Shown: positions 7,374-25,707, numbered from the stretch's first letter. The stretch is DNA of 34,382 nt from Patescibacteria group bacterium (GCA_036381535.1 DASVCQ010000150.1:1-34382), one strand, 5' to 3'. Notes: a model not told the origin generated them from the sequence alone. Numbers and translations are program-made.

Positions 7374-7410
7374 AAATAAGTCAAAAGGCAAAATGCAAAA
7401 GTCAAAATAT
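7374..7410 (+). repeat. A-rich intergenic repeat, half element (unit GTCAAAAGGCAAAATGCAAAAGTCAAAAT)
   Basis: taaAAATAAGTCAAAAGGCAAAATGCAAAAGTCAAAAT directly after the rpsJ stop. Near-identical to 12042-12078. Confidence 0.8.
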
Positions 7411-7412
7411 AC

Positions 7413-7432
7413 CCGCCACCAGGCGGTTTTTT
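7413..7432 (+). terminator. intrinsic terminator after rpsJ
   Basis: CCGCC-acca-GGCGG followed by T6. Nearly identical to the tuf terminator. Confidence 0.75.
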
Positions 7433-7467
7433 AATGCTTGTTTGTAAACTCTGATTTGTCCAAATGC

Positions 7468-7482
7468 TGCTATAATCATTTT
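7468..7482 (+). promoter_or_regulatory. extended -10 promoter, leaderless-type
   Basis: TGcTATAAT-catttt-ATG(7483). Confidence 0.55.
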
Positions 7483-8130
7483 ATGAATAATCCAACTACT
7501 TTTTATATTGTTAGGCACGGCGAATCAGAGGCAAATGTAGGTTTTAGAGACGGGACTATAAAAACATATTCAGGAAGTTTAGCTCATGGGACAGATCTAA
7601 CGGAAAAAGGTATTTCTCAGGCAAAAGAGCGGGCTAAAGACTTACAAAATATCAAATTTGACGCTGCATTTTCTTCTGATTTTACTCGGGCAAAAAGGAC
7701 AGCTGAGATTATTGCAAAAGAGCATGAGCTTGTTGTTGAGTCACTTAAGATTCTTCGCGAGAGATTTTGGGGAAGTCTTGAAGGATGGCCGATTGAAAAA
7801 ATTGATTCAGAGATGAAAAGGCTTCAAGAAGGGCTTAACGCACAGCAGAAAATGAAATTTAAATTAGTTGAGGACGCAGAAAGTAATGAAGAGGCAGCAG
7901 TTAGAATGGTGCAATTTGTTAGGGAAATGGCACTTGCCTATCCTGATAAGACAGTACTGGTGGTAAGTCACGGGGATATTATGAGAAGATTTCTGACCAA
8001 AATTGGTTATGTGGAATATGAAGAATTGCCCGCTCATTCGGTAAAAAATACAGCCTATTTTGTCCTAAAATCTGATGGAATTGAGTTTGAAGTAATTAAG
8101 ACAGAGGGTATAGAGAAAAAGACTAGTTAG
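7483..8130 (+). CDS. histidine phosphatase family protein (phosphoglycerate mutase-like)
   Basis: FYIVRHGESEAN (RHG motif), SSDFTRAKRTAE and VVSHGD. Start set at ATG 7483 rather than TTG 7438. Confidence 0.8.
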   Translation: MNNPTTFYIVRHGESEANVGFRDGTIKTYSGSLAHGTDLTEKGISQAKERAKDLQNIKFDAAFSSDFTRAKRTAEIIAKEHELVVESLKILRERFWGSLEGWPIEKIDSEMKRLQEGLNAQQKMKFKLVEDAESNEEAAVRMVQFVREMALAYPDKTVLVVSHGDIMRRFLTKIGYVEYEELPAHSVKNTAYFVLKSDGIEFEVIKTEGIEKKTS

Positions 8131-8470
8131 GGTTTCTTATAGGAGGATTTTCTTGGTTTCTTTGTTTTCTCGCATCTCTTCGGTCAAGATAGAAAATTCC
8201 GCCGGCAATAGAAGTGACTATTCCAATAGAGGCAACAACAATTGCAGGGATAGCGTCTACTGTTTGCTTCACAATCTCTGCTTTTTGCTCGGGAGATAAT
8301 GCAAGAATGCCCCCTACTAAAACTGCTCCAGTCGCTGCTATCATAGCACCCACAACGCCAAGTAATGCAATTGCTGGTATTTTTGTTGCATTAGTAATCC
8401 ATTTTTCATCTTCTGTTAACTGCTCAGGCGGTCTATTTGTATTATCTGGTTCAATTCCCATAGGAGGCAT
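8123..8470 (-). CDS. small membrane protein, hypothetical
   Basis: 115 aa with two hydrophobic G/A-rich helices and charged termini. Its 3' end overlaps the convergent phosphatase gene by 8 nt. The antisense ORF 8214-8588 is the alternative reading. Confidence 0.5.
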   Translation of the reverse strand: MPPMGIEPDNTNRPPEQLTEDEKWITNATKIPAIALLGVVGAMIAATGAVLVGGILALSPEQKAEIVKQTVDAIPAIVVASIGIVTSIAGGIFYLDRRDARKQRNQENPPIRNPN

Positions 8471-8512
8471 TTTAACATGTTTGGTATGTTATATCAATTT
8501 TATCCCCGCCTC

Positions 8513-8541
8513 TTGCGGTAACCGTATGTTTTTGGTACAAT
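8513..8541 (+). promoter_or_regulatory. candidate promoter of the rplC operon
   Basis: TTGCGG-17-TACAAT with TGg (8533-8535). Confidence 0.4.
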
Positions 8542-8619
8542 ACCAATGTTTCGTCAACATGATCCAAATCTTTTCTGATACGGATTGAAAGTAGCTTCAA
8601 GTTTTCCCTCAAAAGAGAG

Positions 8620-8641
8620 GTGGCTTGCTAGCCACTTTTTT
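8620..8641 (+). terminator. terminator-like hairpin in the rplC leader (possible attenuator)
   Basis: GTGGCT-tgct-AGCCAC followed by T6, 38 nt upstream of the rplC ATG. Confidence 0.5.
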
Positions 8642-8678
8642 GTTGGCTTTTTAAGGTATTAGTCTTATACACAAATAT

Positions 8679-9761
8679 ATGCAAGCAGTAATTGGAAAAA
8701 AATTAGAACAGACACAAAAATTCTTATCTGATGGAACTCGAATTCCAGTTACTATTGTGGCAACCCCAGGAAATCCGGTTGTCTCAATTAAGACAATGGA
8801 TAAAGATGGCTATTGGGCAATGCAACTTGGATTCGGAGAAAGAAAGCATGCCAATAAGCCACTTCTCGGACACATTAAAAAGGCGCAACTTCAGAAGGCG
8901 CCTTTTGCGTTAAGAGAGGTACGACTTACTGAAAAAGAAGCCGAGAATCTACCTGAGGCAGGCTCCACGCTTGAAGTTGCAACTGTTTTGGAAGAGGGAG
9001 ATATTGTTGATGTTACAGGAGTATCTAAAGGTAAAGGATTTGCAGGAGGCGTTAAAAGACATAATTTTAAAGGTGGTCCAAGGACTCATGGTCAGTCAGA
9101 CAGAGAGCGTGCACCTGGATCTTTAGGCCAAACTACAACTCCAGGAAGAGTTTATAAAGGTAAAAGAATGGCCGGAAAAATGGGAAATGACACTGTGACT
9201 CTTAAGAATTTGGAAATTGTTAAAATTGGATCTGACTTTGTCTGGGTTCGCGGGCTTGTTCCTGGAAAAATTGGTACTGTTGTAACTATCAAAGCAACAG
9301 GTAAAAAAAATAAAAGATTTGTTGAGGTAATGAAGACCAAAGAAGAATTGGCAGAAATTGCAGCTCAGGAAGCAAAGGCTGCTGAAGAAGCAGAAAAAGC
9401 AAGAGTATTGGCAGAGGAAGAGGCTAAAAAAGCAGCAGCCGAGGCTGAAGCTATGGCAGCCAAGGCAGCAGGGTCAGAGACGCCAGAGGAGTCAGAAGGG
9501 ACAAAAGAGACAGAGGAAGCAAAGGTAGAGGTTTCAGAGGAGACAAAGGTAGCAGAGGAAAGTTTGGAAGAGGCTAAAGAAGAAGTCGTAGAAGAAGTGA
9601 AGACAGAAGCAGTTGCCACAGAGGCAGTTGCAGAAGAGGTCAAAGCAGAGGAGACAGAAGAGACAGAGGAGACAAAAGCAGAGGGTTCGGAGGAGACAAA
9701 AGAGACAGAAGGTTCAAAAGATAAAGAAGAGACAGAAGAGACAAAGGAGGAGGCAAAATAG
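8679..9761 (+). CDS. rplC: 50S ribosomal protein L3 with a ~150-aa acidic C-terminal extension
   Basis: The canonical L3 core (FAGGVKRHNFKGGPRTHGQSDRERAPGS) is followed by an E/A/K/T-rich tail. Confidence 0.93.
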   Translation: MQAVIGKKLEQTQKFLSDGTRIPVTIVATPGNPVVSIKTMDKDGYWAMQLGFGERKHANKPLLGHIKKAQLQKAPFALREVRLTEKEAENLPEAGSTLEVATVLEEGDIVDVTGVSKGKGFAGGVKRHNFKGGPRTHGQSDRERAPGSLGQTTTPGRVYKGKRMAGKMGNDTVTLKNLEIVKIGSDFVWVRGLVPGKIGTVVTIKATGKKNKRFVEVMKTKEELAEIAAQEAKAAEEAEKARVLAEEEAKKAAAEAEAMAAKAAGSETPEESEGTKETEEAKVEVSEETKVAEESLEEAKEEVVEEVKTEAVATEAVAEEVKAEETEETEETKAEGSEETKETEGSKDKEETEETKEEAK

Positions 9762-9792
9762 TAGTTAGTATCTAGTATTTTGTATTTAGTAT

Positions 9793-10581
9793 ATGGCGAT
9801 AAAGAAAAGTACACCAAAACAAACCAAGATAGCACCAAGGTCTTCAGAAGAGCCAAAGGCAGTAAAAAAGGTTGTAGCTAAGTCAGCTATTAAAAAAGCT
9901 GAAAAAGTCGAAGCAACAATACCAGTTGCGAAAAAATCTGAATCTTTAACAGTTTCAGTATATGATGTCAAAGGCAAAGAGACAGGAAAAATGGATCTTC
10001 CAAAAGAAGTATTTGGAGCAAAAATAAATCCTGTTCTTATGGCTCAAGCTGTTAGGGTTTATTTAACCAACCAAAGGCAAGGTCGCGCAAATACCAAGTC
10101 ACGAGGAGAAGTAGACGGTTCGACAAGAAAAGTTTATAGACAAAAAGGTACAGGTCGTGCAAGACACGGTGGAATAAGGGCTCCAATCTATGTAGGTGGA
10201 GGAATTGCACACGGTCCTAAATTTAAGGATTTTGAGCTTTCTTTATCTAAAAAAATGAAAAAAGCATCACTTTTTTCTGCTCTTTCACAAATGGCAAAAG
10301 ACGGACGCATTATAGTTGTGTCTGGATTTGAAAAAATAGAGCCTAAGACAAAAGTTGCAGCGTCAGCGCTTGTTGGAATGGGGCTTTCAGGACAAAAAGC
10401 ATTGGTTGTAATGCCATCTCATCTTGAAAATGTCTTTAAAGCAGCAAGGAATATTGCAAAAATAAAAGTTTCAACGACATTACTTTTAAATACTTATGAC
10501 GTTTTGAATGGAGGCACATTAGTTATTATGAAGGAAGCAGTTGAGGGTCTAGCTGGAGCAAAAAAGGAGGCTAAAGCATAA
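9793..10581 (+). CDS. rplD: 50S ribosomal protein L4 with a ~50-aa Lys-rich N-terminal extension
   Basis: L4 core: RQGRANTKSRGEVDGSTRKVYRQKGTGRARHG. Confidence 0.92.
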   Translation: MAIKKSTPKQTKIAPRSSEEPKAVKKVVAKSAIKKAEKVEATIPVAKKSESLTVSVYDVKGKETGKMDLPKEVFGAKINPVLMAQAVRVYLTNQRQGRANTKSRGEVDGSTRKVYRQKGTGRARHGGIRAPIYVGGGIAHGPKFKDFELSLSKKMKKASLFSALSQMAKDGRIIVVSGFEKIEPKTKVAASALVGMGLSGQKALVVMPSHLENVFKAARNIAKIKVSTTLLLNTYDVLNGGTLVIMKEAVEGLAGAKKEAKA

Positions 10582-10583
10582 AT

Positions 10584-10883
10584 ATGAATGTACTTAATAT
10601 CTTAGTTAGTCCGGTTATTACAGAAAAATCAATGGCAGATGCAGAGAATAGTAAATTTACTTTTATTGTGTCTATGGACTCAGACAAGCCGACTATTCAA
10701 AAAGCAGTTGAAGCACAATTTGGAGTAAAAGTACTTGATGTTGCAACAAGTATTGTTAAAGGGAAAATAAAAAGAGTAGGAAAAAAGAGAACAGAAAAAA
10801 AATTGAATTCTATTAAGAAAGCAATTGTCACCTTGGAAAAAGGACAAAAAATAGATTTATTTGATTTGGGAGACAAGAAATAA
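10584..10883 (+). CDS. rplW: 50S ribosomal protein L23
   Basis: ILVSPVITEKS N-terminus plus synteny. The SD AAGGAGG lies inside the rplD 3' end. Confidence 0.92.
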   Translation: MNVLNILVSPVITEKSMADAENSKFTFIVSMDSDKPTIQKAVEAQFGVKVLDVATSIVKGKIKRVGKKRTEKKLNSIKKAIVTLEKGQKIDLFDLGDKK

Positions 10884-10891
10884 GGAGAAGA

Positions 10892-10912
10892 TCCTGAAAT
10901 AAATTCAGGAGG
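10892..10912 (+). promoter_or_regulatory. hairpin partly sequestering the rplB Shine-Dalgarno
   Basis: TCCTGAA-ataaa-TTCAGGA. The 3' arm overlaps AGGAGG (10907-10912). Confidence 0.4.
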
Positions 10913-10920
10913 ACAAGAGT

Positions 10921-11658
10921 ATGAAATTGAAAGTTATAAAAAAGAAAAATTCGGGTAGAAACTCAAGCGGAAGCGTTACTGTTAGGCATCAAGGTGGAGA
11001 AGAAAAACGTTTTTTGAGAAATATTGACTTTAAGCGCGATAAAAGGACACCTGGTAAGGTCGTTGCGATAGAATATGATCCTAATAGAACTTGTGACATT
11101 GCTTTGATACAATATACGGACGGTGAAAGAAGGTATATCCTTGCACCTGATGGACTTAAAGTAGGAGATACGGTCGCTGCAGGAGAAAATGTTGATACCA
11201 AAGTTGGAAATGCATTGCCTTTGTCAGCACTTCCTCTTGGATCTGTTGTCCATAACGTAGAGCTTACTCCTGGAAAGGGAGGACAATTTGCAAGAAGTGC
11301 AGGGGTTTTTGTAACTCTTGCAGCAAAAGAAGGTAAATATGCACACTTAAGAATGCCTTCAGGTGAAGTAAGACTTGTGCCTGTTACCAGTATGGCAACT
11401 GTTGGACAGGTAGGAAAAGTTACTTGGAAAAATGAAGTAATTGGTAAAGCAGGTAGGGCAAGACACATGGGTATAAGGCCAAGTGTTAGGGGAGTTGCTA
11501 TGAATCCAAGATCTCATCCTCACGGAGGAGGAGAAGGTAGGTCAGGAATCGGTCTTAAAAGACCAAAGACCTATGCAGGACGTGCAGCTGTTGGAAAAAG
11601 GAGAAATCCTAAAAAATATTCTAATAAATATATAATACAAAGGAGGAAAAAGAAATAA
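10921..11658 (+). CDS. rplB: 50S ribosomal protein L2 (shortened N-terminus)
   Basis: Has IEYDPNRTCDIALIQYTDGERRYILAP and GVAMNPRSHPHGGGEG. At 245 aa it lacks about 30 N-terminal residues of typical L2. Confidence 0.94.
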   Translation: MKLKVIKKKNSGRNSSGSVTVRHQGGEEKRFLRNIDFKRDKRTPGKVVAIEYDPNRTCDIALIQYTDGERRYILAPDGLKVGDTVAAGENVDTKVGNALPLSALPLGSVVHNVELTPGKGGQFARSAGVFVTLAAKEGKYAHLRMPSGEVRLVPVTSMATVGQVGKVTWKNEVIGKAGRARHMGIRPSVRGVAMNPRSHPHGGGEGRSGIGLKRPKTYAGRAAVGKRRNPKKYSNKYIIQRRKKK

Positions 11659-11745
11659 GTTTAAAGTAGAAAGTTAAAAGTATAGGAACTTTTATTTCTA
11701 TAAATAAAATACCTAAACTTTTCATTTTTAAGTTTTAAATTTTAA
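11659..11745 (+). repeat. AT-rich imperfect inverted repeat (AAAGTAGAAAGTT subfamily)
   Basis: Starts right after the rplB stop. Shares the 13-mer AAAGTAGAAAGTT with 16708-16720. Arms are GTTTAAAGTAGAAAGTTAAAAGTATAGG and CCTAAACTTTTCATTTTTAAGTTTTAAA. Confidence 0.55.
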
Positions 11746-11756
11746 TTTAATAAAAT

Positions 11757-12041
11757 ATGGCAAGAAGCGCAAAAAAAGGACCATACGTAGACGATAGACT
11801 CTTAAAAAAGGTCTTAAAACAAAAACAGAGTGGAGATCATTCACTTATCAAGACATGGTCAAGAGCATGTCAAATACCACCTGAATTTGTCGGACATACA
11901 ATAGGAGTACATAACGGGCGTATTTTTGTAAATGTTTTTGTTGTTGAAGGAATGGTTGGACATAGACTTGGTGAATTCGCACCAACCAGGACATTTAGAT
12001 CTCATGGAAGAATTGTCGCACGTGAGATAAGTAAGACATAA
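11757..12041 (+). CDS. rpsS: 30S ribosomal protein S19
   Basis: [11 protein letters not shown]...[10 protein letters not shown] signature. Confidence 0.95.
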
Positions 12042-12078
12042 AAATAAGTCAAAAGGCAAAATTCAAAAGTCAAAAGTT
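12042..12078 (+). repeat. A-rich intergenic repeat, half element
   Basis: taaAAATAAGTCAAAAGGCAAAATTCAAAAGTCAAAAG immediately after the rpsS stop. Confidence 0.8.
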
Positions 12079-12095
12079 TGATAAGGAGAAAATAT

Positions 12096-12473
12096 ATGCA
12101 AGCAGTAGCAAAATTAAATGGAGCAAAGATTAGTCCAAGGAAAGCACAACTTGTTGCGGATGCAATAAGAGGTCTTTCTGTTATACGTGCACAGCAAATA
12201 CTTGCTGTTACCAATAAGCACGGTTCACCTATTCTGAGCAAAATATTAAGTAGTGCAGTTGCAAATGCCGTAAATAATAAAAAAATGGCAGGAGACGATT
12301 TGGTAATAAGTCAACTTTTGGTACAAAGTGGATCTTTTTTAAGGAGATTTCACTCTGCAGCAAGAGGAAGAGTAAGGCCATACACAAAAAGAACAACAAA
12401 TATTACTATGGTAGTAAGTGATGAAAAAATGAATACAAAAAAAGCAGTTAAAGAAGAGAAAGGAGAAAAATAA
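12096..12473 (+). CDS. rplV: 50S ribosomal protein L22
   Basis: MQAVAKLNGAKISPRKAQLVADAIRG. ATG 12096 with SD AAGGAGA (12083-12089). The track's TTG 12078 was rejected. Confidence 0.94.
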   Translation: MQAVAKLNGAKISPRKAQLVADAIRGLSVIRAQQILAVTNKHGSPILSKILSSAVANAVNNKKMAGDDLVISQLLVQSGSFLRRFHSAARGRVRPYTKRTTNITMVVSDEKMNTKKAVKEEKGEK

Positions 12474-12545
12474 GTTAAAAGGCAAAAATCATAAATCATA
12501 AGTGTAAGAAAATTACCTAAATTTTGACTTTTGCATTTTTAATTA
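12474..12545 (+). repeat. A-rich intergenic inverted-repeat element
   Basis: Left arm GTTAAAAGGCAAAAAT starts at the rplV stop. Right arm AAATTTTGACTTTTGCATTTTTAA is the reverse complement of the family unit. Confidence 0.7.
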
Positions 12546-12560
12546 TAAATTTTAGAAAAT

Positions 12561-13223
12561 ATGGGACAGAAAGTTAATCCACAAGTATTAAGACTTGGAA
12601 CAGTTTACAATTGGGAATCTCGCTGGTTTGATGAGCGTGAGTACAAAAAGACTCTTCTTGAGGATTACAAACTCAGAAAGGCTCTTATGGCAAAACTCAA
12701 ATTTGCAGGAGTTTCTAATATAGAAATTGAAAGATCTATTAATTCTGTAAAATTAATAATTAATGTAAGTAAGCCAGGTATGGTTATAGGTCGTGCAGGC
12801 ACAGGACTTGAAGATTTAAAGAAATTTATAATGGCAACCTTTAAGAGTGTGGATTCTAAAAAAACAGGTAAAAATGCTCCTAAAGTTGACCTTAGAGTTG
12901 AGGCAATTAAAGAGCCAAATCTTGATGCATTCTTGGTTGCTAAAAATGTTGCTGAAATGCTTGCAAAAAGACTTCCTTATAAAAGAGTCTTAAATAGTAA
13001 TGCAGAGCGTGTAATGGGAGCAGGAGCAAAGGGTGTAAGAATTGTCTTATCAGGAAGAATTGGCGGAGCAGAAATTGGAAGACGTGAGAAAATTCAGGTT
13101 GGAAAAGTACCATTATCAACAATTAGAGAGCATATCGAGTATGCATCTTATCCTTCCTTGACACAAAAAGGATATATAGGAGTTAAGGTATGGATTAATG
13201 CGCCGGAAAGAGAGGGAAATTAA
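12561..13223 (+). CDS. rpsC: 30S ribosomal protein S3
   Basis: MGQKVNPQVLRLG and KH domain GMVIGRAG. Confidence 0.95.
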   Translation: MGQKVNPQVLRLGTVYNWESRWFDEREYKKTLLEDYKLRKALMAKLKFAGVSNIEIERSINSVKLIINVSKPGMVIGRAGTGLEDLKKFIMATFKSVDSKKTGKNAPKVDLRVEAIKEPNLDAFLVAKNVAEMLAKRLPYKRVLNSNAERVMGAGAKGVRIVLSGRIGGAEIGRREKIQVGKVPLSTIREHIEYASYPSLTQKGYIGVKVWINAPEREGN

Positions 13224-13290
13224 TTCAAAAGGCAAAATGCAAAAGTCAAAATTTAGATAATTTATACTTTTGACTTTTAACTTTTGAATT
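13222..13290 (+). repeat. A-rich intergenic inverted-repeat element (two-segment hairpin)
   Basis: Outer 10 bp: AATTCAAAAG (13222-13231) pairs with CTTTTGAATT (13281-13290). Inner 11 bp: AAAAGTCAAAA (13241-13251) pairs with TTTTGACTTTT (13268-13278). The outer stem includes the last 2 nt of the rpsC stop. Confidence 0.8.
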
Positions 13291-13303
13291 TTAACTTAAA
13301 ATT

Positions 13304-13714
13304 ATGTTAGTACCAAGAAGAGTAAAATACAGAAAACAAATGAGAGGTACACGTACAGGTAATGCTTACCGAGGTACAGCAATTACTTTTGGTGACTTTG
13401 GTTTGCAGAGTCTTGAAGCGGGATGGGTAAGCAGTAGGCAAATTGAAGCAGCAAGACGCGCAATTACCCATTATATTGCAAGAGGTGGAAAAGTCTGGAT
13501 TAAAATTTTTCCTGACAAACCTATTACTAAAAAACCACCTGAAACACGTATGGGATCTGGAAAGGGTGATGTACATGAGTATGTTGCAGTTGTTAAGCCG
13601 GGAAGAATGTTATTTGAAATGGGTGGAATAACTAAAGTAGTTGCACAGGAAGCACTAAGACTTGCAGCATATAAATTGCCCGTTAAGACAAGATTTGTAA
13701 CAAAAGGAGAATAA
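13304..13714 (+). CDS. rplP: 50S ribosomal protein L16
   Basis: [15 protein letters not shown]...RMGSGKG. Confidence 0.95.
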
Positions 13715-13715
13715 T

Positions 13716-13922
13716 ATGGTAAAAAAAACAGATAATTTTGCACAAAAAAGTGCAGCAGAATTAAAAGAAGCAGTTAAAAATTTAAGAGAAGAACTTATGA
13801 AATTAAGACTTGATCATTCAAAAAGACAGCTTGCTAAGACAAAAGATTTGACAAATAAGAGAAAAGAAATTGCAAAAGCATTAACAGCTTTGGGGCAAAA
13901 GAAAGGAGGATCTAGTAAATAA
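13716..13922 (+). CDS. rpmC: 50S ribosomal protein L29
   Basis: 68 aa with [18 protein letters not shown], plus synteny. SD AAGGAGA. Confidence 0.9.
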
Positions 13923-13993
13923 AATATAAAAAAGTAAATAGTAAATAATAATTACTTTTTACTCTTTAATATTAAATATTTACTATAAATTTT

Positions 13994-19408: not shown

Positions 19409-19419
19409 TTTATAAAAAG

Positions 19420-19989
19420 ATGAAAATAATATTAATTGGAATTCAGGGAGCAGGAAAATCAACACAAGGGAATATTCTGTCAAAAAAATTAAAAATTCCG
19501 TATCTTTCAACCGGGCATATTTTCCGTACAATCGCCCAGGAAAAAACCACAATGGGAAGATATATTAAAGAGGTAATGAACGCAGGTTTTCTTATTCCTG
19601 ATAAGAAAACTCTGGAAGTTGTAAGTGAATACCTTTCACGTCCTGAATATGAAAAAGGGTATATTATGGACGGGTTTCCTCGCACTGTTGGACAAGCCAA
19701 AACTTTTAAAAATGGTATTTCAGCGGTGGTTTATCTTCAGGTTAGTGACAGAGAGGCATTGTGGAGGCTTTCATTTAGGGATCAAGCAGGTCGGGAAGAC
19801 GAAACTTTGATGGCTCTTAGAAAAAGAATTGAGCTTTTTCACAAATTCACCGAGCCGGTACTAGACTTTTATCGAAGGAAAGGAATACTAATTGAAATCG
19901 ACGGGGAAAAAGATATAAAAGAAATTTCTAAAGAAATCTTGGAAAAGCTTGCAAAAGTAGAAAAGAAGAATGATTCCCAAAAAGGATAG
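19420..19989 (+). CDS. adk: adenylate kinase (short form)
   Basis: IILIGIQGAGKSTQG P-loop and MDGFPRT. Confidence 0.9.
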   Translation: MKIILIGIQGAGKSTQGNILSKKLKIPYLSTGHIFRTIAQEKTTMGRYIKEVMNAGFLIPDKKTLEVVSEYLSRPEYEKGYIMDGFPRTVGQAKTFKNGISAVVYLQVSDREALWRLSFRDQAGREDETLMALRKRIELFHKFTEPVLDFYRRKGILIEIDGEKDIKEISKEILEKLAKVEKKNDSQKG

Positions 19990-20500
19990 ACCACTGATAA
20001 TCGGTATAACCGGTGCCTTAGGAAGCGGAAAATCAACTGCAAGCTCTTTTTTCTCAAAAAATGGATTTAGTGATATTGATTTATCATCTTTTTTAGAGGA
20101 AGAAATACATACTAGAGGAATTAGTAAAATAACCAGAAAAGTTATAGATGACGTTGAAAATGAATGGCAAAATAAATATGGAAAAGGAATTTTAGCAGAA
20201 AAAGCCATAAAAGTATTGGGAAAAGGAAAGCTATTTGTTGTTGATGGTATAAAGAATATTGAAGAAGTAGAAGTTTTGAGAAAAGAAGGTAATTTTTTGC
20301 TACTGGCAATTGTTAGTGAAAAAAAAGAGCGGATTGAGAGAATAAAGGGAGTAAATAAAAAAGAAATGAATCAGGAATTATTTAAGCAGGTGGATTGTGA
20401 AGTAGTTTGTACGAAAATTGCTGATAAATTTGTTGAAAATAACGGGACGTTAATGGAATTTGTTGAAAAATTGCAAAAAGTATCAAAGGAAATAATATGA
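19970..20500 (+). CDS. P-loop nucleotide/nucleoside kinase (dephospho-CoA kinase-like, UPF0200-like)
   Basis: IIGITGALGSGKST Walker A and VVDGIKNIEEVEVLR. 176 aa. Overlaps the adk end by 20 nt and the cmk start by 4 nt. Confidence 0.6.
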   Translation: MIPKKDRPLIIGITGALGSGKSTASSFFSKNGFSDIDLSSFLEEEIHTRGISKITRKVIDDVENEWQNKYGKGILAEKAIKVLGKGKLFVVDGIKNIEEVEVLRKEGNFLLLAIVSEKKERIERIKGVNKKEMNQELFKQVDCEVVCTKIADKFVENNGTLMEFVEKLQKVSKEII

Positions 20501-21192
20501 CTAAAGATTTAGTAAATGCAATAGCAATTGATGGTCCGGTCGCTGCGGGTAAAGGAACAATCGCAGCACTTCTTGCCAAAAGGCTGAAAGGATTTCATCT
20601 TTATACAGGCGCTATGTACCGTTGTCTTGCATTATGCTGTCTTGAGAGAGATATAGATGTTACAAAAGTTGATAGCGTCCTATCTGCCCTTTCTGAGATT
20701 TGGTTTGATTTGGATGGTGACATAGTATATCTGAATGATCAGGACGTCACTGAAAAGCTAAAACAAAGGTCTGTTACGCAGCTTGTCCCAAAAGTTGCGG
20801 CAATAGGGAAAGTTAGAGAAGAAATGGTGAAACGTCAGCAGGAGATTGGTCGAAAAAAGATGGATATGGGTAAAGTCGTCGTTGCTGAAGGCAGGGATGT
20901 TGCGACAAAGATTTTTCCTGATGCAAGGCTTAAGATATTTCTTACTGCCAGACCTGAAGTTCGCGCAAAAAGAAGATATGAGCAAATGGGAGGCAAAAAT
21001 AACGCAACAATTACCTTTGAAGATATCCTGGGGGATACAAATGAGCGTGACAGACGCGACTATGAAAGAAAGGTAGATCCACTAGTCAAAAACCCAGAAA
21101 AAATGGGTTATACCCTCATAGATAATTCAGACCTTACAGAAGATGAGACAGTTGAGGCTGTTGTTAGTGCATGGAATAGTCATATAAAATGA
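20497..21192 (+). CDS. cmk: cytidylate kinase
   Basis: IAIDGPVAAGKGT, GRDVATKIFPDA and RAKRR. Confidence 0.9.
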   Translation: MTKDLVNAIAIDGPVAAGKGTIAALLAKRLKGFHLYTGAMYRCLALCCLERDIDVTKVDSVLSALSEIWFDLDGDIVYLNDQDVTEKLKQRSVTQLVPKVAAIGKVREEMVKRQQEIGRKKMDMGKVVVAEGRDVATKIFPDARLKIFLTARPEVRAKRRYEQMGGKNNATITFEDILGDTNERDRRDYERKVDPLVKNPEKMGYTLIDNSDLTEDETVEAVVSAWNSHIK

Positions 21193-21959
21193 AAATCTAC
21201 TTAAAAACACCAAAAGAAATAGAAATTATGGCAAAAGGGGGGAAAATCCTCTCTAACGTCATGTGGGAGGTTCTAAAGCATGCAAAAGAGGGAGTTTCGG
21301 AGCTAGAACTGGACGCTTTGGCCGAAAAATTAATCCTACAACAAGGTGGAGAGCCTGGATTTAAGAAAGTAGAAGGCTATAAGCATACTATTTGTATCTC
21401 AACAAATGAGGTGGTTGTACACGGAATTCCAACTGCATACAGGCTTAAGGCAGGAGATGTTGTGGGAATTGATTGCGGAGTTTTTTTAGAAGGTTTTCAT
21501 ACTGATATGTCAGAATCGATTCAAGTTAAAGGTGAAAATTCGCAGCTAAAAGATGAAAAAGTAGAGAAGTTTTTAGTAACAGGCAAAAGGGCCCTGGAAG
21601 AGGCAATAAAACAAGTCAAACCAGAAAATCGAATTGGACATATTTCAAAGACAATTCAAGAGATTGTTGAGGGGAGTGGATATAGTGTAGTCAGAGAGTT
21701 GATTGGTCATGGAGTGGGAAGAGAATTACATGAAGATCCACCTATTCCAGGATATGTTTATGGTAAGGTTGAGCGTACTACTATTCTTAGAGAAGGAATG
21801 GTTATTGCAATTGAAGTAATATATAATATGGGCAAAAAAGAAGTAGTTTTCTCAGGTAAAGACGATTGGACGATACAAACAAAGGATAATTCCCTCTCAG
21901 GACTATTTGAAAGAACAGTTGCTGTGACCTCAAACGGATATAGAATATTAACCCCCTAA
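21189..21959 (+). CDS. map: type I methionine aminopeptidase
   Basis: VVHGIP, DCGV..GFHTD, HGVGRELHE and EVIY. ATGA overlap with the cmk stop. Confidence 0.94.
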   Translation: MKIYLKTPKEIEIMAKGGKILSNVMWEVLKHAKEGVSELELDALAEKLILQQGGEPGFKKVEGYKHTICISTNEVVVHGIPTAYRLKAGDVVGIDCGVFLEGFHTDMSESIQVKGENSQLKDEKVEKFLVTGKRALEEAIKQVKPENRIGHISKTIQEIVEGSGYSVVRELIGHGVGRELHEDPPIPGYVYGKVERTTILREGMVIAIEVIYNMGKKEVVFSGKDDWTIQTKDNSLSGLFERTVAVTSNGYRILTP

Positions 21960-21968
21960 TTATTCTTC

Positions 21969-21997
21969 TTGACACGCACAGATCTTAATTGTAAAAT
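21969..21997 (+). promoter_or_regulatory. strong sigma70-like promoter, near-leaderless
   Basis: TTGACA-17-TAAAAT, then 9 nt to ATG 22007. Confidence 0.6.
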
Positions 21998-22006
21998 TTT
22001 GCCGAA

Positions 22007-22633
22007 ATGGTAATTGTTGAAGGCAAAGAAATTAATGTCGTTCTGAATATGAGGCCTCATCATGCCAGAATGCCTGAATATCAAGATATTCTGAGAAGAA
22101 AAAGGACTCCTGCAATACATGCAAAAGCAAGAAGTAAATTAATGTCTAATATGCTAGAGGAAATGCATGTTGGATATAGATTTGATGTTTTAAAAAGTTT
22201 GGAGGAATGTGACGTTAGGGCATATGAGGATGAAATAGAAAAAGGAGACATTCGTCTTCAACTTTTAACTGATGATTCTTTTATACAACTAGACCTAAGA
22301 GAGGATTTGATATGTTTTGCAGCATGCAGAAGAAGACACTGTAGCGGGACAAGATATCTGACGACTAGACCGGCTGTGGATATAAAAGCGGCAGAAGAAG
22401 TAAATGTCAGGGCAATAAAAAAGGATTTGATTGAGGCTGGATATAAATCAGGTGAGGATTATTTTGATATACAAACAACTCATACTTTGTATGATTTTGA
22501 AGGAAAAGACTTAAATCATGGTGAAGCTATACCAAAAATTGTTAAATTTAACGGTCTTATTGTCAGGACAGGAGCGCTTCGTGACCCCAGAATAAAACCC
22601 GCGATTCGCTCTAATAAGAATAAGGACTTATGA
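22007..22633 (+). CDS. hypothetical protein inserted between map and infA
   Basis: 208-aa ORF, Arg/Asp/Glu-rich, with a CFAACRRRHC cluster. It has its own promoter and no family I recognise. Confidence 0.55.
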   Translation: MVIVEGKEINVVLNMRPHHARMPEYQDILRRKRTPAIHAKARSKLMSNMLEEMHVGYRFDVLKSLEECDVRAYEDEIEKGDIRLQLLTDDSFIQLDLREDLICFAACRRRHCSGTRYLTTRPAVDIKAAEEVNVRAIKKDLIEAGYKSGEDYFDIQTTHTLYDFEGKDLNHGEAIPKIVKFNGLIVRTGALRDPRIKPAIRSNKNKDL

Positions 22634-22635
22634 TA

Positions 22636-22664
22636 TTGCTCTTTGAAGCAAGGTTTGGTATAAT
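22636..22664 (+). promoter_or_regulatory. promoter of infA-rpmJ...
   Basis: TTGCTC-17-TATAAT with TGg (22656-22658). Confidence 0.5.
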
Positions 22665-22685
22665 GAGTCTCTAGTCTTGACATAA

Positions 22686-22904
22686 ATGGCACACCAAGGA
22701 TCTTACGAAGTGGATGGGGTTGTCAAAGAATCTCTTCCAAATACACTTTTCAGAGTCGAATTATCCGACGGGTCTGTTATTTTGTGTCATTTGTCCGGTA
22801 AGATGCGAATACATTATGTTAAGATCTTGCCCGGAGATAGAGTAAGAGTTGAAATGACTGAATACGATAAGACTAAAGGTAGAATTGTCTATAGAGGAAG
22901 ATAA
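22686..22904 (+). CDS. infA: translation initiation factor IF-1
   Basis: [33 protein letters not shown]...[12 protein letters not shown]. Confidence 0.96.
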
Positions 22905-22960
22905 GTTAGAAGTCAAAATGCAGAAGTAAAAATTATTACTTACACTTTTGCCTTTTGAGT
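22905..22960 (+). repeat. A-rich intergenic inverted-repeat element
   Basis: GTTAGAAGTCAAAATGCAGAAGTA starts at the infA stop and pairs with CACTTTTGCCTTTTGAG (22943-22959). Confidence 0.7.
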
Positions 22961-22980
22961 TATAAATTTTAAATAAATAT

Positions 22981-23094
22981 ATGAAAGTACAAGCAAGTGT
23001 CAAACCAAGATGTGCAAAATGCAAAGTTATTAAGCGCAAAGGCGTGCTTAGGGTTGTTTGTGAAAATCCCAGACATAAGCAGCGTCAAGGATAA
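22981..23094 (+). CDS. rpmJ: 50S ribosomal protein L36
   Basis: Not in the ORF track because it is under 60 aa. Translates to [37 protein letters not shown]. Confidence 0.93.
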
Positions 23095-23099
23095 TTAAT

Positions 23100-23516
23100 A
23101 TGAGAGTATCAGGAATTACAATACCAGATGATAAAAAAGTTGAAATTTCGCTAGCCTATCTTTATGGTGTTGGAAGAAGTAATGCTAAAATTATACTTAA
23201 GAAAGCTAAGGTAGATGGAGCTAAAAGAGTAAAGGACCTAACAGAAGACGAACAAAAGAGTATTGCCAAGGTTCTTGAAGAATACAAGGTTGAAGGAGAC
23301 CTAAGAGCAGAGGTTGGAGGAAATGTAAAAAGACTTAAAGAAGTAGGAGCATATAGAGGGTTAAGACATATTCATAATTTGCCTTCCAGAGGTCAGAGGA
23401 CCAGATCTAATGCTCGTACCAAACGTGGGAAGAGATTAACAATTGGTGCTATCAAGAAAGAAGTAGCAGCAAAGATGGAGGCATCCCAAACGCAGAAAGC
23501 AAAAGCAGGAAAATAA
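23100..23516 (+). CDS. rpsM: 30S ribosomal protein S13
   Basis: MRVSGITIPDDKKVEISLAYLYGVG...GLRH..NLPSRGQRT. Confidence 0.95.
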   Translation: MRVSGITIPDDKKVEISLAYLYGVGRSNAKIILKKAKVDGAKRVKDLTEDEQKSIAKVLEEYKVEGDLRAEVGGNVKRLKEVGAYRGLRHIHNLPSRGQRTRSNARTKRGKRLTIGAIKKEVAAKMEASQTQKAKAGK

Positions 23517-23530
23517 ATTAATTTAAAAAT

Positions 23531-23929
23531 ATGGCTAAAAAAGACACAAAAATAGTTAAAAAGAAAAAAAACGGAGCAGTAGTGACATCTGGTGGTAAAA
23601 TTTTCATTACTGCAACATTCAATAATACTTTAGTTACAGTAACCAACGAAAAAGGTGAGACAGTTTCCTGGAGCTCATCTGGTGCAAAAGGATTTAAGGG
23701 TGCCAGAAAGTCAACTCCATATGCCGCTTCACTTGCTGTTGAAGATGCAGCAAAAAAAGCACTTGAAAAAGGCTTAAAATCAGTTGAGGTTTATGTAAAA
23801 GGACCGGGATCCGGAAGAGATAGTGCTCTTCGTGCAATTAGATCTGCTGGTCTATCTATCTCACTTATTGCAGATGTAACACCAATTCCACATAACGGAC
23901 CAAGGGCAAAGAAAAGGAGGAGAGTATAG
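23531..23929 (+). CDS. rpsK: 30S ribosomal protein S11
   Basis: [35 protein letters not shown]...[13 protein letters not shown]. Confidence 0.95.
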
Positions 23930-23991
23930 TTTATTGACCATGTATTGGTTTGGGCCAATATAAATGGAAAATATTAACCAACAAATAAAAT

Positions 23992-24594
23992 ATGGCAAGA
24001 TATACAGGACCAAAACATAAATTAGCAAGACGAGAAGGGATCAATCTTCTTGACAAACAATCTGCATCACTTCAAAAAAGGCTTACTCAAAAACCTGGTG
24101 CGCATGGAGCAAAAAGAGCACGCAAACTTTCAGAATTCGGACTACAACTTCGTGAAAAACAAAAAGCAAAGAATATGTATGGTATTTTAGAAAAGCAATT
24201 TTCAAATATGGTAGCAGATGTTCAAAAAATGAAAGGTGATACTTCTGAGGCTATTATTGCAAGACTTGAGCGAAGATTGGATAATATTGTTTATAGACTT
24301 GGTTTTTCAAAGTCTCGTTTTATGGCCAGGCAATTTGTCTCACATGGTCATGTTTTGGTAAATGGTAAAAAGCTAACAATCCCATCATATATTGTTCGTG
24401 AAGGAGATGTAGTTGAGCTAGGCACAAAAATTCAGAAAAATCCTGACGTAATTAAAGTCATGTCAGAAGAACGCATAGTTCTTCCTTTCCTCGAGAAAAA
24501 AGGTCCTGTTGGGAAATTAGTAAGAAATCCTAAAAAAGAAGACGTAGAAGTACCATTTGACGTACAGATGATTATTGAGTATTATTCTAGGTAA
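23992..24594 (+). CDS. rpsD: 30S ribosomal protein S4
   Basis: MARYTGPKHKLARREG plus the S4 RNA-binding domain RLDNIVYRLGF. Confidence 0.95.
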   Translation: MARYTGPKHKLARREGINLLDKQSASLQKRLTQKPGAHGAKRARKLSEFGLQLREKQKAKNMYGILEKQFSNMVADVQKMKGDTSEAIIARLERRLDNIVYRLGFSKSRFMARQFVSHGHVLVNGKKLTIPSYIVREGDVVELGTKIQKNPDVIKVMSEERIVLPFLEKKGPVGKLVRNPKKEDVEVPFDVQMIIEYYSR

Positions 24595-24678
24595 TAGACA
24601 CAAAGATATCACGTGTACTGTAAGTGAATTTGTGTGTTGATTATTGTTGGAATAAATGATAAAATACCAATTACAGCC

Positions 24679-25602
24679 ATGATGAACGCTAATTTTAAAG
24701 TTACACAGCATAACAGCTCAGACACATTTGCTCAATTTGTTATTGAGCCTCTTGAGCCTGGATATGGATACACACTCGGACACGCAATGAGACGTGTTCT
24801 ACTCGCATCTATTCCTGGAGCAGCAGTCACATCAGTTAAGATTTCAGGCGTTAAGCATAAATTTACCGCTCTTGCTGGCCTCAAAGAAACAATCGTTGAT
24901 TTCTTACTAAACCTCAAAAATGTTAACTTCAAACTAGCTCCATCAAAAGATTCAGCAACAGTAACACTTTCTGTTAAAGGACAAAAAGAAATAACAGCAG
25001 CAGATATTGAAGTAGTTGATGGTGTTGAAGTCGTAAATAAAGATGAATATCTTGGATCTTTATCAGGTGATAAAGCAAAGTTAGAAATGGAAATAAATAT
25101 AGAAAGAGGTTATGGTTATTCTTTAGCCGAGGAAAGACAGGCTGAAGTATTAGGTACAATTTTAACAGATGCAGTATTTACTCCTGTTAAAAGAGTAAAT
25201 TATACAGTTGAGGCAACCCGTGTTGGAAGACGCACAAATATGGACAAGCTTATTCTTCAAGTTTGGACAAATGGATCTGTCTCTCCAAAAGAGGCTTTGG
25301 ATGAAACTTCAAAAATTCTCGCTACATTCTTTAGGCAAGTATATGAGCCACAATCAGAAGCAGTAGAAGCACAAGAAGTTGCAACATCTTCAATTTCTGA
25401 GGATTTATTAAGACTTACAGTTGATGAATTAGATCTTCCTACAAGAATTTATAACAGTCTTCGCAACGGCGGAATTGAAACAATCGGTCAATTGCTTTCA
25501 ACCCCAAGGAAAGACCTTATTTCTATGAGAAATATGGGCGCAAAGTCAATTGCTATTATAGAAGATAAACTGTCCGAAAAAGGTATATCATTAAATATTT
25601 AA
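24679..25602 (+). CDS. rpoA: DNA-directed RNA polymerase subunit alpha
   Basis: FVIEPLEPGYGYTLGHAMRRVLLASIPG and C-terminal domain LDLPTRIYNSL. Start at ATG 24679. The track's 24634 extension was rejected. Confidence 0.94.
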   Translation: MMNANFKVTQHNSSDTFAQFVIEPLEPGYGYTLGHAMRRVLLASIPGAAVTSVKISGVKHKFTALAGLKETIVDFLLNLKNVNFKLAPSKDSATVTLSVKGQKEITAADIEVVDGVEVVNKDEYLGSLSGDKAKLEMEINIERGYGYSLAEERQAEVLGTILTDAVFTPVKRVNYTVEATRVGRRTNMDKLILQVWTNGSVSPKEALDETSKILATFFRQVYEPQSEAVEAQEVATSSISEDLLRLTVDELDLPTRIYNSLRNGGIETIGQLLSTPRKDLISMRNMGAKSIAIIEDKLSEKGISLNI

Positions 25603-25707
25603 GTCAAAAGTCAAAGGGCAAAAGTCAAAATTACAAGGTAAAGATCAATAATTTTTAAATTTGAAATTGTACTTTTGATTTTTGAATTTAACTTTTGACT
25701 TTTTTTG
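25601..25707 (+). repeat. A-rich intergenic inverted-repeat element, ~100-nt hairpin with U-tract
   Basis: Base stem of 11 bp: AAGTCAAAAGT (25601-25611) pairs with ACTTTTGACTT (25691-25701), followed by T6. The inner arms are imperfectly complementary GTCAAAA units. Confidence 0.8.

Follow-up and report, generated by a model that had tools for sequence, protein, structure and literature searches.

Why should the spacers between ribosomal protein genes carry A-rich inverted repeats that begin at the stop codon? An earlier note raised this question for an uncultured Patescibacteria (Microgenomates-like) bacterium, whose S10-spc-alpha ribosomal protein cluster lies within the 34,382-nt stretch of DNA analyzed here (the window). 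We found that these sequences are a dispersed palindromic repeat family and not AT-rich background. With a probability of roughly 0.55, we read them as a genome-specific family of small noncoding repeats of the MITE/REP/foldback type, at least six or seven copies of which inserted into once-compact stop/start junctions of the cluster. We regard this as a real mobile-repeat family that is probably near neutral and not a dedicated regulator.

A repeat family with a 7-nt period at ribosomal protein stop codons

The same unit of about 28 nt was said to recur in six spacers, and this was borne out by matching and by core enrichment over shuffles. The 28-nt unit GTCAAAAGGCAAAATGCAAAAGTCAAAA had four matches in the window with three or fewer mismatches, at 7380 (none), 12048 (one), 13224 (one), and 25603 (three), together with two degenerate copies; dinucleotide-preserving shuffles of the sequence gave 0 matches. 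Against the same chance level, the core AAAGKCAAAAK occurred 11 times in the window where 0.64 was expected, and all 11 occurrences lay inside the six named spacers, so that the alternative of an AT-rich background, raised in the earlier note, did not survive this check within the window. The six spacers were correctly placed, except that the rpsC and rpoA elements begin at 13224 and 25603 rather than at 13222 and 25601.

The arms are built from the heptamer KKCAAAA, repeated with a period of 7. Tandem Repeats Finder reported arms of period 7 for five of the six spacers; the array after infA scored under its threshold. From 7000 to 26000, all period-7 arrays lay within an intercistronic spacer or entered one (11647-11682). 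Being short KKCAAAA tandem arrays, the arms are thus also heptanucleotide simple-sequence repeats of the STRR/LSSR kind. Repeat clustering placed the six forward arms (A-arms) in one family, D2, and the four reverse arms (T-arms) with their leaders in another, D3. Period-7 arrays of other heptamers (TAGTATT, TAGTAAA, AATTTCA, and AAAAAGT) were present across many window spacers.

Every named copy begins with TAA. In four spacers this is the gene's own stop codon, as had been claimed for all six, but after rpsJ and rpsS it is another TAA, in frame and 6 nt past the stop codon. All elements and leaders described here lie on the + strand. The half element after rpsJ (7374-7409) consists of AAATAA, which contains the second stop (7377-7379), and an A-arm of four KKCAAAA units (7380-7407). 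It has no inverted arm, and a canonical GC-rich terminator follows directly (7413-7432). The half element after rpsS (12042-12077) also has the forward arm only; downstream of it lie an AAGGAG Shine-Dalgarno sequence and the start of rplV, which is probably the ATG at 12096 and not the TTG at 12078. The two half elements, previously described as nearly identical, agree at 36 of 37 positions counted from the stop codon, TAAAAATAAGTCAAAAGGCAAAAT[G/T]CAAAAGTCAAAA, including flanks outside the repeat. Insertion is polar, lone A-arm copies in the window always standing in sense orientation directly 3' of TAA.

The other four spacers do carry the reverse-complement arm reported for them, and spacer folding predicted stable hairpins of 52 to 101 nt (−14 to −28 kcal/mol), with imperfect double-stranded RNA stems of 22 to 35 bp running from the stop codon on and z-scores down to −5.7. 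Between rplV and rpsC, the foldback (12471-12544) has a degenerate A-arm (12474-12503) and a T-arm (12520-12551); its hairpin (12473-12544; −14.0 kcal/mol, z = −2.6) begins with the final base of the stop codon, and the 16 nt between it and the rpsC ATG (12545-12560) form an unpaired AU-rich leader that lacks a Shine-Dalgarno sequence. The rpsC-rplP foldback (13221-13290; A-arm, 13224-13251; T-arm, 13266-13298) forms a hairpin at 13222-13290 (−19.3 kcal/mol, z = −5.7), and a leader of 13 unpaired, AU-rich nucleotides (13291-13303) then runs to the rplP ATG. The degenerate infA-rpmJ foldback (22902-22964; A-arm, 22905-22932; T-arm, 22941-22968) forms one at 22910-22961 (−14.1 kcal/mol, z = −2.7), with an AU-rich leader of 19 nt to the rpmJ ATG at 22981. 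Longest is the rpoA-rplQ foldback (25600-25701; A-arm, 25603-25630; T-arm, 25671-25703), whose hairpin (25601-25701; −28.4 kcal/mol, z = −4.5) is separated by an 11-nt leader from the rplQ start, probably the ATG at 25713. The rpsC and rpoA copies pair the AA of the stop codon in the stem, confirming by folding that the basal stem takes in the last 2 nt of the stop codon.

Four spacers can be aligned over the loop end (ATTACYTAMA), the T-arm, and the leader (family D3). Otherwise the loops vary from copy to copy and KK positions are mismatched between the arms of one hairpin, so simple recent duplication of a single master element does not account for the copies. Bit scores were higher for the A-arms of the window copies (20.7 to 27.6) than for the T-arms (13.6 to 22.7), a strand asymmetry which implies that the sense-strand A-arm could be under selection.

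The set of six was incomplete. A seventh, degenerate hairpin (−17.4 kcal/mol) starts at the rplB stop codon in the rplB-rpsS spacer (11656-11742); it contains period-7 arrays of AAAAAGT and TAAATTT, its T-arm and leader belong to family D3, and a marginal motif match lies at 11717-11748. The rpmC-rpsQ spacer (13923-13993) has the same architecture built from a different heptamer (5.9 copies of TAGTAAA), with a hairpin of −9.6 kcal/mol and then a 20-nt leader. It is a related phenomenon outside the KKCAAAA sequence family.

Empty junctions in close relatives and arrays in other phyla

We compared the junctions with those of the closest relatives, in which S3 is 88 to 92% identical. Sites that are filled here were element-free there, the junctions measuring 0 to 23 nt and often being TAATG overlaps. 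At S3-L16 (rpsC-rplP), for example, L196 and L197 have a TAATG overlap and L122 has TAGCATG. Dispersed palindromic repeats at sites that are occupied here but vacant in close relatives uphold the REP/MITE-like reading offered earlier, and the sequence comparison suggests that the copies are recent, gained after the split from the nearest sampled relatives. The flanks of two insertions read ATAAG and AAATTA, and boundaries are ambiguous in DNA of about 70% A+T, so that target-site duplication is not demonstrable.

Unrelated heptamer hairpins occupy the same junctions in other relatives (S3-L16 in L125 and L22-S3 in L197) and lie at other junctions too, the position varying by genome. The L125 element at S3-L16 and the L126 element at L18-S5 are 88% identical over the whole TAA-to-ATG spacer, and such end-to-end identity at different junctions of two genomes points to copying rather than growth in place. 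Among 20 long intercistronic spacers from the window and seven relatives, all 20 gave a predicted fold with a single dominant hairpin and, after it, an AU-rich leader left unpaired, whatever the sequence. For 19 of the 20, the stem began between −2 and +8 nt relative to the stop codon; for 19 of the 20, its end lay 8 to 29 nt upstream of the ATG.

The copies are specific to this genome, as the description "lineage-specific" had implied, but KKCAAAA arrays and A-arm/T-arm foldbacks are not: they occur in Cyanobacteria, Bacteroidota, Acidobacteriota, CPR, and other groups. Adjacent paired arrays across phyla ran A-arm then T-arm in 31 cases and in the reverse order in 0, which is expected if a fixed inverted-repeat unit was copied. 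In a Stigonema genome, one such element is present twice, once in each orientation. Identical 27-mers were also shared between phyla, and these are explicable by combinatorics, with four variants per unit. The heptamer occurs in genomes of 31 to 62% GC, a range hard to explain by descent alone and hinting at function or a shared mutational bias. By crude ORF calls, 23 of 69 A-arrays but 9 of 55 T-arrays across phyla lay within 30 nt past a sense-strand stop codon (weak orientation statistics), and hairpin forms in other phyla lay seven times between convergent genes and once between divergent ones. Several CPR ORFs contain (GTCAAAA)n arrays in frame, and cyanobacterial arrays flank whole genes. 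No transposase or RAYT gene was present in the window or between long-range array pairs at other loci.

Origin and possible role of the elements

We suggest that the elements spread by copying of a preformed unit, which could have occurred by transposition in trans or by recombination or template switching at TAA-proximal microhomology, and that copies are retained at sites where the harm they cause is small. Once inserted, an element would be cotranscribed in the operon mRNA and fold on itself, which would bring the upstream stop codon at the stem base near the unpaired AU-rich leader of 11 to 19 nt and the downstream start codon. Such a hairpin, bridging stop to leader and start, would leave a downstream gene translatable without a Shine-Dalgarno sequence. 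Half elements may sit where bridging is unneeded, ahead of a real terminator (rpsJ) or of a gene that has a Shine-Dalgarno sequence itself (rplV). Genes downstream of the elements had been singled out as lacking this signal, but about 29 of the 39 genes in the window lack it, a genome-wide habit not specific to genes that follow an element. Several observations weigh against insertion of a MITE/REP-like repeat: the window holds neither a transposase nor a RAYT gene, target-site duplications are not demonstrable, loops and KK positions differ as they would not in simple recent duplicates, A-arms are better conserved than T-arms, and the heptamer spans genomes of such different GC content.

Might the hairpins instead be selected RNA elements, that is, intercistronic stem-loops serving as sites for RNase III or other endonucleases or as barriers to 3' exonucleases? 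If so, they would govern how stable each segment of a long ribosomal protein mRNA is, and with it the stoichiometry. The predicted stems from the stop codon on, the recurrence of hairpin plus leader in 20 of 20 long clade spacers despite unrelated sequences, and the better conservation of the sense-strand A-arms all fit this idea, and Correia repeats are cleaved or protected by RNase III while ERIC exposes RNase E sites (PMC2649163, PMC10969869). By analogy with these two families, a role in RNase III/E processing or stability is plausible. As the reason for the elements' existence, however, we think selection of this kind unlikely. The hairpins are missing at the same junctions in the closest relatives and are therefore dispensable, their position differs between genomes, and we found no strand-specific (G-U) signal of RNA-level selection, sense and antisense strands folding equally well. 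The earlier suggestion of engineered RNA structures finds no support in a sequence that sits among environmental Patescibacteria relatives with analogous natural elements.

Growth in place by polymerase slippage, with inverted arms of local origin and copies that are convergent, would account for the period-7 arrays of several heptamers in many window spacers, for the differing loops, and, through combinatorics, for the 27-mer identity across phyla. Heptamers are described in PMC4679880 and PMC4692102 (after Mrazek 2007) as the most overrepresented long simple-sequence repeats of bacteria, with slippage blamed. Yet slippage is an improbable source of the near-identical rpsJ and rpsS copies with their nonrepeat flanks, of loop ends and leaders common to several spacers (D3), or of the L125/L126 pair, and a 31-to-0 arm order is not what local slippage predicts. 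We are very doubtful that the arrays are sites for a single-strand nucleic acid-binding protein (S1, cold shock, or KH type) that would load one molecule per 7-nt A-arm unit after the stop, with the T-arm as a sequestering competitor. The A-arm is indeed the conserved part, it also stands alone, in sense, directly after TAA in the window, arrays favor sense stops by the crude counts, and cold shock and S1-type proteins have been proposed to bind TAACTGA repeats (PMC4679880). On the other hand, the elements have no candidate protein connected with them, close relatives lack them, orientation statistics are weak, and arrays also lie in frame within CPR ORFs or flank whole cyanobacterial genes.

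Partial termination, proposed in the earlier note, is unlikely as judged from the sequence, and there is only a slim chance that weak terminators or attenuators lower transcription stepwise along the operon. The A-rich 5' arm and U-rich 3' arm are invariant in their order and would give each transcript a U-rich 3' stem arm, like bidirectional terminators; seven U's close the rpoA-rplQ copy, and convergent placement prevails in other phyla. Nevertheless, a terminator scan flagged none of the four AU-rich hairpins, mixed AU sequence rather than a U-run follows three of the four, and the genome's own operon-end terminators combine a GC-rich stem with a T-run (7413-7432 and, as repeat family D8, about 5060, 27216, and 31611). 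Four or five intraoperon terminators would moreover be costly where products are needed in equal amounts. Chance in AT-rich spacers, or an assembly artifact, was refuted by the shuffles, the fold z-scores, and the separately catalogued public contig L121 (run SRR25158368, which may be the window's own read set), which is 100% identical over 12304-13342, including both hairpins. We prefer to read the elements as MITE/REP/STRR-like palindromic repeats that are tolerated in a self-folding form.

Comparison with known repeat systems

Cyanobacterial STRR heptanucleotide tandem repeats were reportedly described by Mazel in 1990. Related systems are the TAACTGA repeats of Beggiatoaceae, Cyanobacteria, and Bacteroidetes, which are also found within ribosomal protein operons, where they precede genes that lack a Shine-Dalgarno sequence (PMC4679880), and the GGGAATC heptanucleotide repeats of Xanthomonas (PMC4692102). 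Like the elements described here, STRR, TAACTGA, GGGAATC, and LSSR repeats are intergenic 7-nt units, strain specific in presence and length, sporadic across phyla, and in some cases inverted pairs. The TAACTGA arrays are direct repeats just upstream of start codons, whereas our elements use KKCAAAA, start from the stop codon, and in most cases form inverted pairs. By a search for terms, neither the A-arm/T-arm order (31 to 0) nor the stop-to-start hairpin architecture is mentioned in these two papers, and a literature search with sequence strings came back empty.

REP, BIME, and REPIN sequences, mobilized by RAYT, are likewise multicopy, short imperfect palindromes that lie just past stop codons, in many cases within operons; stabilization of upstream mRNA has been proposed for them. 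Unlike REPs, the elements here have no conserved GTAG-like head or GC-rich stem, their arms are AU-rich heptamers, and no RAYT gene lies in the window. Eukaryotic foldback transposons have long inverted arms of short tandem subrepeats, as our elements have arms of heptamers, and the in-frame insertions that Rickettsia palindromic elements make in coding genes resemble the (GTCAAAA)n arrays of CPR ORFs. Hosts and sizes differ and there is no sequence relationship, so these likenesses are architectural only.

In Correia/CREE (Neisseria), ERIC (enterobacteria), and Chunjie (Geobacter), as here, small, noncoding, multicopy elements with terminal inverted repeats form a long hairpin, lie in intergenic and intraoperon positions near gene ends, and show filled and empty sites between relatives. 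Here, in contrast, the arms are 7-nt tandem arrays instead of unique inverted repeats, the loops are unconserved, there is no demonstrable target-site duplication or partner transposase, and insertion is exactly between stop and start codons in a CPR host with a very small genome. The Chunjie MITE inserted in an operon that stayed intact; Correia and ERIC are cotranscribed, their hairpins being substrates of RNase III/E (PMC10969869, PMC2649163).

The repeat family and its operon setting

The earlier note had proposed that the six spacers after rpsJ, rpsS, rplV, rpsC, infA, and rpoA share a unit of about 28 nt, and the counts bore this out. Allowing up to 3 mismatches, the 28-mer GTCAAAAGGCAAAATGCAAAAGTCAAAA is present at 7380, 12048, 13224, and 25603, and it gave 0 matches in shuffled sequences, which speaks against mere AT-rich background as its source in the window. 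The core AAAGKCAAAAK was observed 11 times against 0.64 expected, with all 11 occurrences in the six named spacers. A repeat search of the window grouped six arms in forward orientation as family D2 and four in reverse orientation, with their leaders, as family D3. The model search suggested earlier, which we ran over the 34 kb with a profile from these ten arms, added nothing further except a marginal match in the rplB-rpsS spacer. The copy number is 6 to 7 within 18 kb.

Full elements, which combine a forward A-rich array (A-arm) with its inverted partner (T-arm), are 52 to 101 nt long, with arms of 28 to 35 nt and no ORF; the rpsJ and rpsS copies have a single arm. All six copies open with TAA-K-T-Y-A-R-A-A-G. 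In four of them the opening TAA is the stop codon of the gene; in the rpsJ and rpsS copies, which are identical at 36 of 37 nt, it is a second TAA that follows the stop codon in frame at a distance of 6 nt. Four spacers can also be aligned with one another through the end of the loop (ATTACYTAMA), T-arm, and leader, and the A-arm contains no stop codon in any frame. In five of the six spacers, Tandem Repeats Finder assigned a period of 7 and 4.3 to 5.1 copies to eight arms; it gave only 2.3 copies for the degenerate rplV A-arm (12486 to 12501) and no period-7 row for the infA copy. Other period-7 heptamers in the window were TAGTATT, TAGTAAA, AATTTCA, and AAAAAGT, and every period-7 array between 7000 and 26000 sits within, or extends into, an intercistronic spacer. 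The separately catalogued contig L121 is identical to the window across two of the hairpins, and its read set is possibly the window's own source.

The elements lie in an S10-spc-alpha cluster that runs on the forward strand from rpsJ (7065 to 7373) to rpsI (ending at 27190), in DNA of about 35% G+C. The gene for L30, whose loss is a hallmark of CPR bacteria, is absent between rpsE and rplO. All S3 homologues found were from Patescibacteria, and the named relatives, at about 72% identity, were Levybacteria. Shine-Dalgarno-like motifs precede only about 10 of the 39 window genes, so initiation from AU-rich leaders is the norm here and not a trait peculiar to the genes behind the elements, several of which the earlier note had listed as lacking such a motif.

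Several other features of the cluster were recorded. The rpsJ-rplC interval contains a canonical terminator, a His_Phos_1 gene, and a small ORF. Across the clade, rpsJ appears as a separate unit with its own promoter-like site (7006 to 7034) and terminator, and the phosphatase gene lies between rpsJ and rplC in the window (7410 to 8678) and in four contigs of relatives (L122, 1779 to 3330; L123, 5737 to 6553; L126, 5405 to 6413; L197, 2788 to 4828). A leader conserved clade-wide 5' of rplC (GTAGCTTCA..GAGTGGCYTG..AGCCACTTTTTTGTTGGC) includes a terminator-like hairpin (8614 to 8641 in the window); it matched no Rfam family and may be a ribosomal protein leader or attenuator. L3 (rplC, 8679 to 9761) has 360 aa here and is longer than its counterparts in relatives (254 to 320 aa) by a C-terminal tail with many E, K, and T residues (9364 to 9771). 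The tail is encoded by 9-, 12-, and 15-nt tandem repeats resembling GAGGAGACA (family D1), and its length differs from genome to genome. The spc/alpha region contains extra genes: an AAA_18/CoaE-like kinase gene and cmk lie between adk and map (19970 to 21192), and a 208-aa ORF without a Pfam match (22007 to 22633), preceded by its own promoter-like site (TTGACA-17-TAAAAT, 21969 to 21997), lies between map and infA. The 37-aa rpmJ (22981 to 23094) falls below the size of the mechanical ORF list. Three start calls are probably too far 5', since ATGs downstream better fit conserved N-termini or a Shine-Dalgarno sequence: rplV (TTG at 12078, moved to 12096), rplE (GTG at 14958, moved to 14985), and rplQ (TTG at 25695, moved to 25713). 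The elements lengthen spacers and mislead start-codon annotation of this kind.

Folding of the long spacers

When each spacer was folded, as the earlier note had advised, the four full elements gave single predicted hairpins of −14.0, −19.3, −14.1, and −28.4 kcal/mol, with z-scores of −2.6 to −5.7, and both half elements were unstructured. We then folded every intercistronic spacer that reached 62 nt in the window or in one of seven relatives, 20 in total. One dominant predicted hairpin occupied each of the 20 (z-scores, −2.0 to −5.8). In 19 of them its start lay at −2 to +8 nt relative to the last base of the stop codon, and in 19 it ended 8 to 29 nt 5' of the start codon, leaving an unpaired AU-rich leader; stop-codon bases were part of the hairpin in 10. 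This architecture was the same for heptamer and nonheptamer spacers. It suggests a rule for the clade, that a long spacer between cistrons is tolerated only if it consists of a stop-to-start hairpin plus a short unpaired AU-rich leader. The rule bears on how genes lacking a Shine-Dalgarno sequence are initiated inside operons. A G-U wobble signature of RNA-level selection was sought and not found, the sense and antisense energies being equal.

The hairpins are unlikely to be terminators, partial or otherwise, which the earlier note had offered as one possible role. A terminator scan of the window reported none of the AU-rich hairpins and did report 7413 to 7432 after rpsJ; this and the terminators at about 5060, 27216, and 31611 (the latter three forming family D8) show that the genome uses GC-rich stems followed by a T-run. 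A trailing run of seven U residues is found in the rpoA copy only. We also rejected the idea that the T-arm is a mobile promoter with TTGAC as its −35 box: promoter-like matches numbered 54 against 57 expected, and the sole match in an arm (12524 to 12551) is weak. At the gathering score, the only Rfam 15 match in the window was a tRNA-Pro (31251 to 31321), and the elements were unmatched.

A second family of small repeats, (T)GTCAT-stem-loop-stem-ATC (e.g., GTCATCCTGAGCGAAGTCGAAGGAT, GTCATTCCTGCGAAGGCAGGAATC, and GTCATCCCGCACTTGATGCGGGATC), adjoins the canonical terminators after tuf and rpsJ. It was seen in the window at 5017 to 5050, about 5130 to 5160, and 5785 to 5815, as well as in L122 (1785 to 1815), L123 (5745 to 5775), L125 (2410 to 2470), L201 (4275 to 4300), and L101. 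Its stems seem to covary between genomes.

Filled and empty sites in relatives, and arrays in other phyla

We compared the same operon in eight relatives. The S19-L22, L22-S3, S3-L16, and L2-S19 junctions measure 0 to 23 nt in the contigs L122, L196, and L197, versus 54 to 98 nt in the window. The relatives with short junctions are the closest by S3 (92% and 88% identity). At S3-L16, L196 and L197 have a TAATG stop/start overlap, and L122, the closest relative, has TAGCATG. The window therefore has insertions of about 35 to 90 nt at these four junctions, which supplies the empty sites that the earlier note had thought worth looking for. As candidate target-site duplications of fixed length, we saw ATAAG on both sides of the insertion at S19-L22 and AAATTA on both sides of that at S3-L16; nothing consistent borders the remaining copies, and boundaries are ambiguous in DNA this AT rich.

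Unrelated heptamer hairpins occupy the same junctions elsewhere, with TTAGAAA units at S3-L16 in L125 and CGAATAA units at L22-S3 in L197, and relatives carry further heptamer hairpins at L24-L5, L18-S5, L15-SecY, S11-S4, L3-L4, and L23-L2. One element family is 88% identical over the whole TAA-to-ATG spacer between S3-L16 of L125 and L18-S5 of L126, two genomes whose S3 proteins are themselves 88% identical. Such identity at two different junctions argues for copying of whole units and not for local growth, and pure in-place slippage is accordingly a less likely origin of the arrays.

Direct heptamer arrays in some spacers place a stop codon in every reading frame (L197, 10385 to 10449; window, 9762 to 9792; L126, 7377 to 7404). 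They include seven copies of TAGCNNN at L24-L5 of L197 and about five of TAGTATT between rplC and rplD, the latter array being partly conserved between the window and L126.

The heptamer itself is not lineage specific; the earlier note had suggested that the element family might be. When species-representative genomes were scanned with a degenerate pattern of four units, the matches listed fell in Nostocales and other Cyanobacteria, Bacteroidota, Acidobacteriota, CPR, and other phyla, and among them KKCAAAA was abundant in Nostocales contigs. The window's exact 27-mer occurs in 68 metagenome contigs of 31 to 62% G+C. We considered this as a sign of horizontal mobility and dropped it, since with four variants per unit such identity can be combinatorial.

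Where an array and an inverted partner lay within 150 nt of each other, the A-arm preceded the T-arm in 31 unique cases and followed it in 0, among the matches listed. Since either strand of a palindrome gives the same reading, the order of the arms is intrinsic to the element, and of the orientation data it alone is informative. By crude greedy ORF calls across phyla, arrays in codirectional contexts were sense in 36 cases and antisense in 29, and enrichment just after stop codons was mild, a result too noisy to use. Many paired elements, above all those in contigs of high GC content, fold back over a long, nearly perfect stretch around a variable center, and in one Stigonema genome the same element occurs twice, once in each orientation.

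In six CPR contigs (L022, L025, L026, L030, L042, and L119), (GTCAAAA)3-4 arrays lie in frame within open stretches of 250 to 720 aa, adding VKSQKSKVKS-like peptides. They recall the Rickettsia palindromic elements, which insert in frame into coding genes. In Nostocales, whole ordinary genes were seen with an A-array 5' and a T-array 3' (L010, 3129 to 4946; L118, 5192 to 5674; L111, 4757 to 6391), among them a biotin carboxylase-like gene (accC, as read from its translation) and one for a small alpha-helical protein (four-helix bundle). Judging from sequence, the 5' and 3' untranslated regions of one such mRNA could pair. Array pairs lying 300 to 4,000 nt apart at other loci, checked for an autonomous element, enclosed ordinary genes and no transposases, and the 34-kb window contains no transposase or RAYT gene.

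Interpretation and comparison with known systems

The best-supported reading is that the elements are small palindromic repeats, dispersed as a family specific to this genome and with arms made of heptamer arrays, that mix features of MITE/REP-type elements with those of STRR/LSSR heptanucleotide repeats. On this reading, copies inserted recently at TAA-proximal stop/start junctions. The copying mechanism and the RNA-level consequences are inferred: an insert would be tolerated because it folds on itself in the operon mRNA, a fold that would keep the stop codon beside the next start codon and the unstructured AU-rich leader 5' of it. Half elements would then stand where bridging is unneeded, before a true terminator (rpsJ) or before rplV, which has its own AAGGAG. 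Self-folding repeats have thereby colonized an operon that is the most conserved and most compact one in a CPR bacterium with a minimal genome, and they split the TAATG overlaps that normally couple translation.

In the main rival reading, the hairpins are under selection for RNA processing or stability, by analogy with the Correia and ERIC hairpins, which act in this way for RNase III and RNase E (PMC2649163, PMC10969869). Stems of 22 to 35 bp would be compatible with such processing, the architecture is universal among the long spacers examined, and the sense A-arm is the better conserved; against this, the hairpins are dispensable in close relatives. Two further roles seem less likely still to account for the family: attenuation by the hairpins, and protein binding by the arrays, as was proposed for TAACTGA repeats in ribosomal protein operons (PMC4679880).

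We think it improbable that heptamer foldbacks with the A-arm first form a cross-phylum functional class. In that reading, where Shine-Dalgarno sequences are seldom used (CPR, Bacteroidota, and Cyanobacteria), a hairpin that extends from the stop codon to a point about 8 to 29 nt 5' of the following start would be a bridge, over which ribosomes that terminate would pass to the next cistron. If true, such a bridge would explain the hairpins in 20 of 20 long ribosomal-operon spacers examined in the clade (19 of 20 with these offsets), the invariant arm order, and the recurrence of the same A-rich heptamer in genomes of 31 to 62% GC. It would be analogous, in bacteria, to ribosome shunting or to translational coupling over a long range and might also serve as a processing or stability signal. 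For any mechanism, the 31-to-0 arm order among the matches listed is a new constraint.

Term searches of the literature covered returned no mention of a foldback family built from KKCAAAA in the ribosomal protein operon of a CPR bacterium, of a strict arm order across phyla, or of a stop-to-start hairpin rule for long spacers, and the (GTCAAAA)n string was in print nowhere in the literature searched. Heptamer repeats and operon-resident MITEs are already known (PMC4679880, PMC4692102, PMC10969869).

Taken as MITEs, defined by terminal inverted repeats around a short noncoding core of under about 300 bp, the elements correspond in their terminal inverted repeats, their multiple dispersed copies, and their filled versus empty sites. 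REP/REPIN sequences have a GTAG-type head, a GC-rich imperfect palindrome, and a RAYT; the elements instead start with TAAGTCAAAAG, have AU-rich stems, and are accompanied by no RAYT-like ORF in the window. With STRR/LSSR-type repeats they share head-to-tail 7-nt units in noncoding DNA, a likeness that ties CPR genomes to the long-noted, unexplained excess of heptanucleotides in Cyanobacteria, Bacteroidota, and other phyla. STRR in the strict sense are the specific heptamers STRR1 to STRR3 of heterocystous cyanobacteria, from which the elements differ in their KKCAAAA heptamer and in their Patescibacteria-related host.
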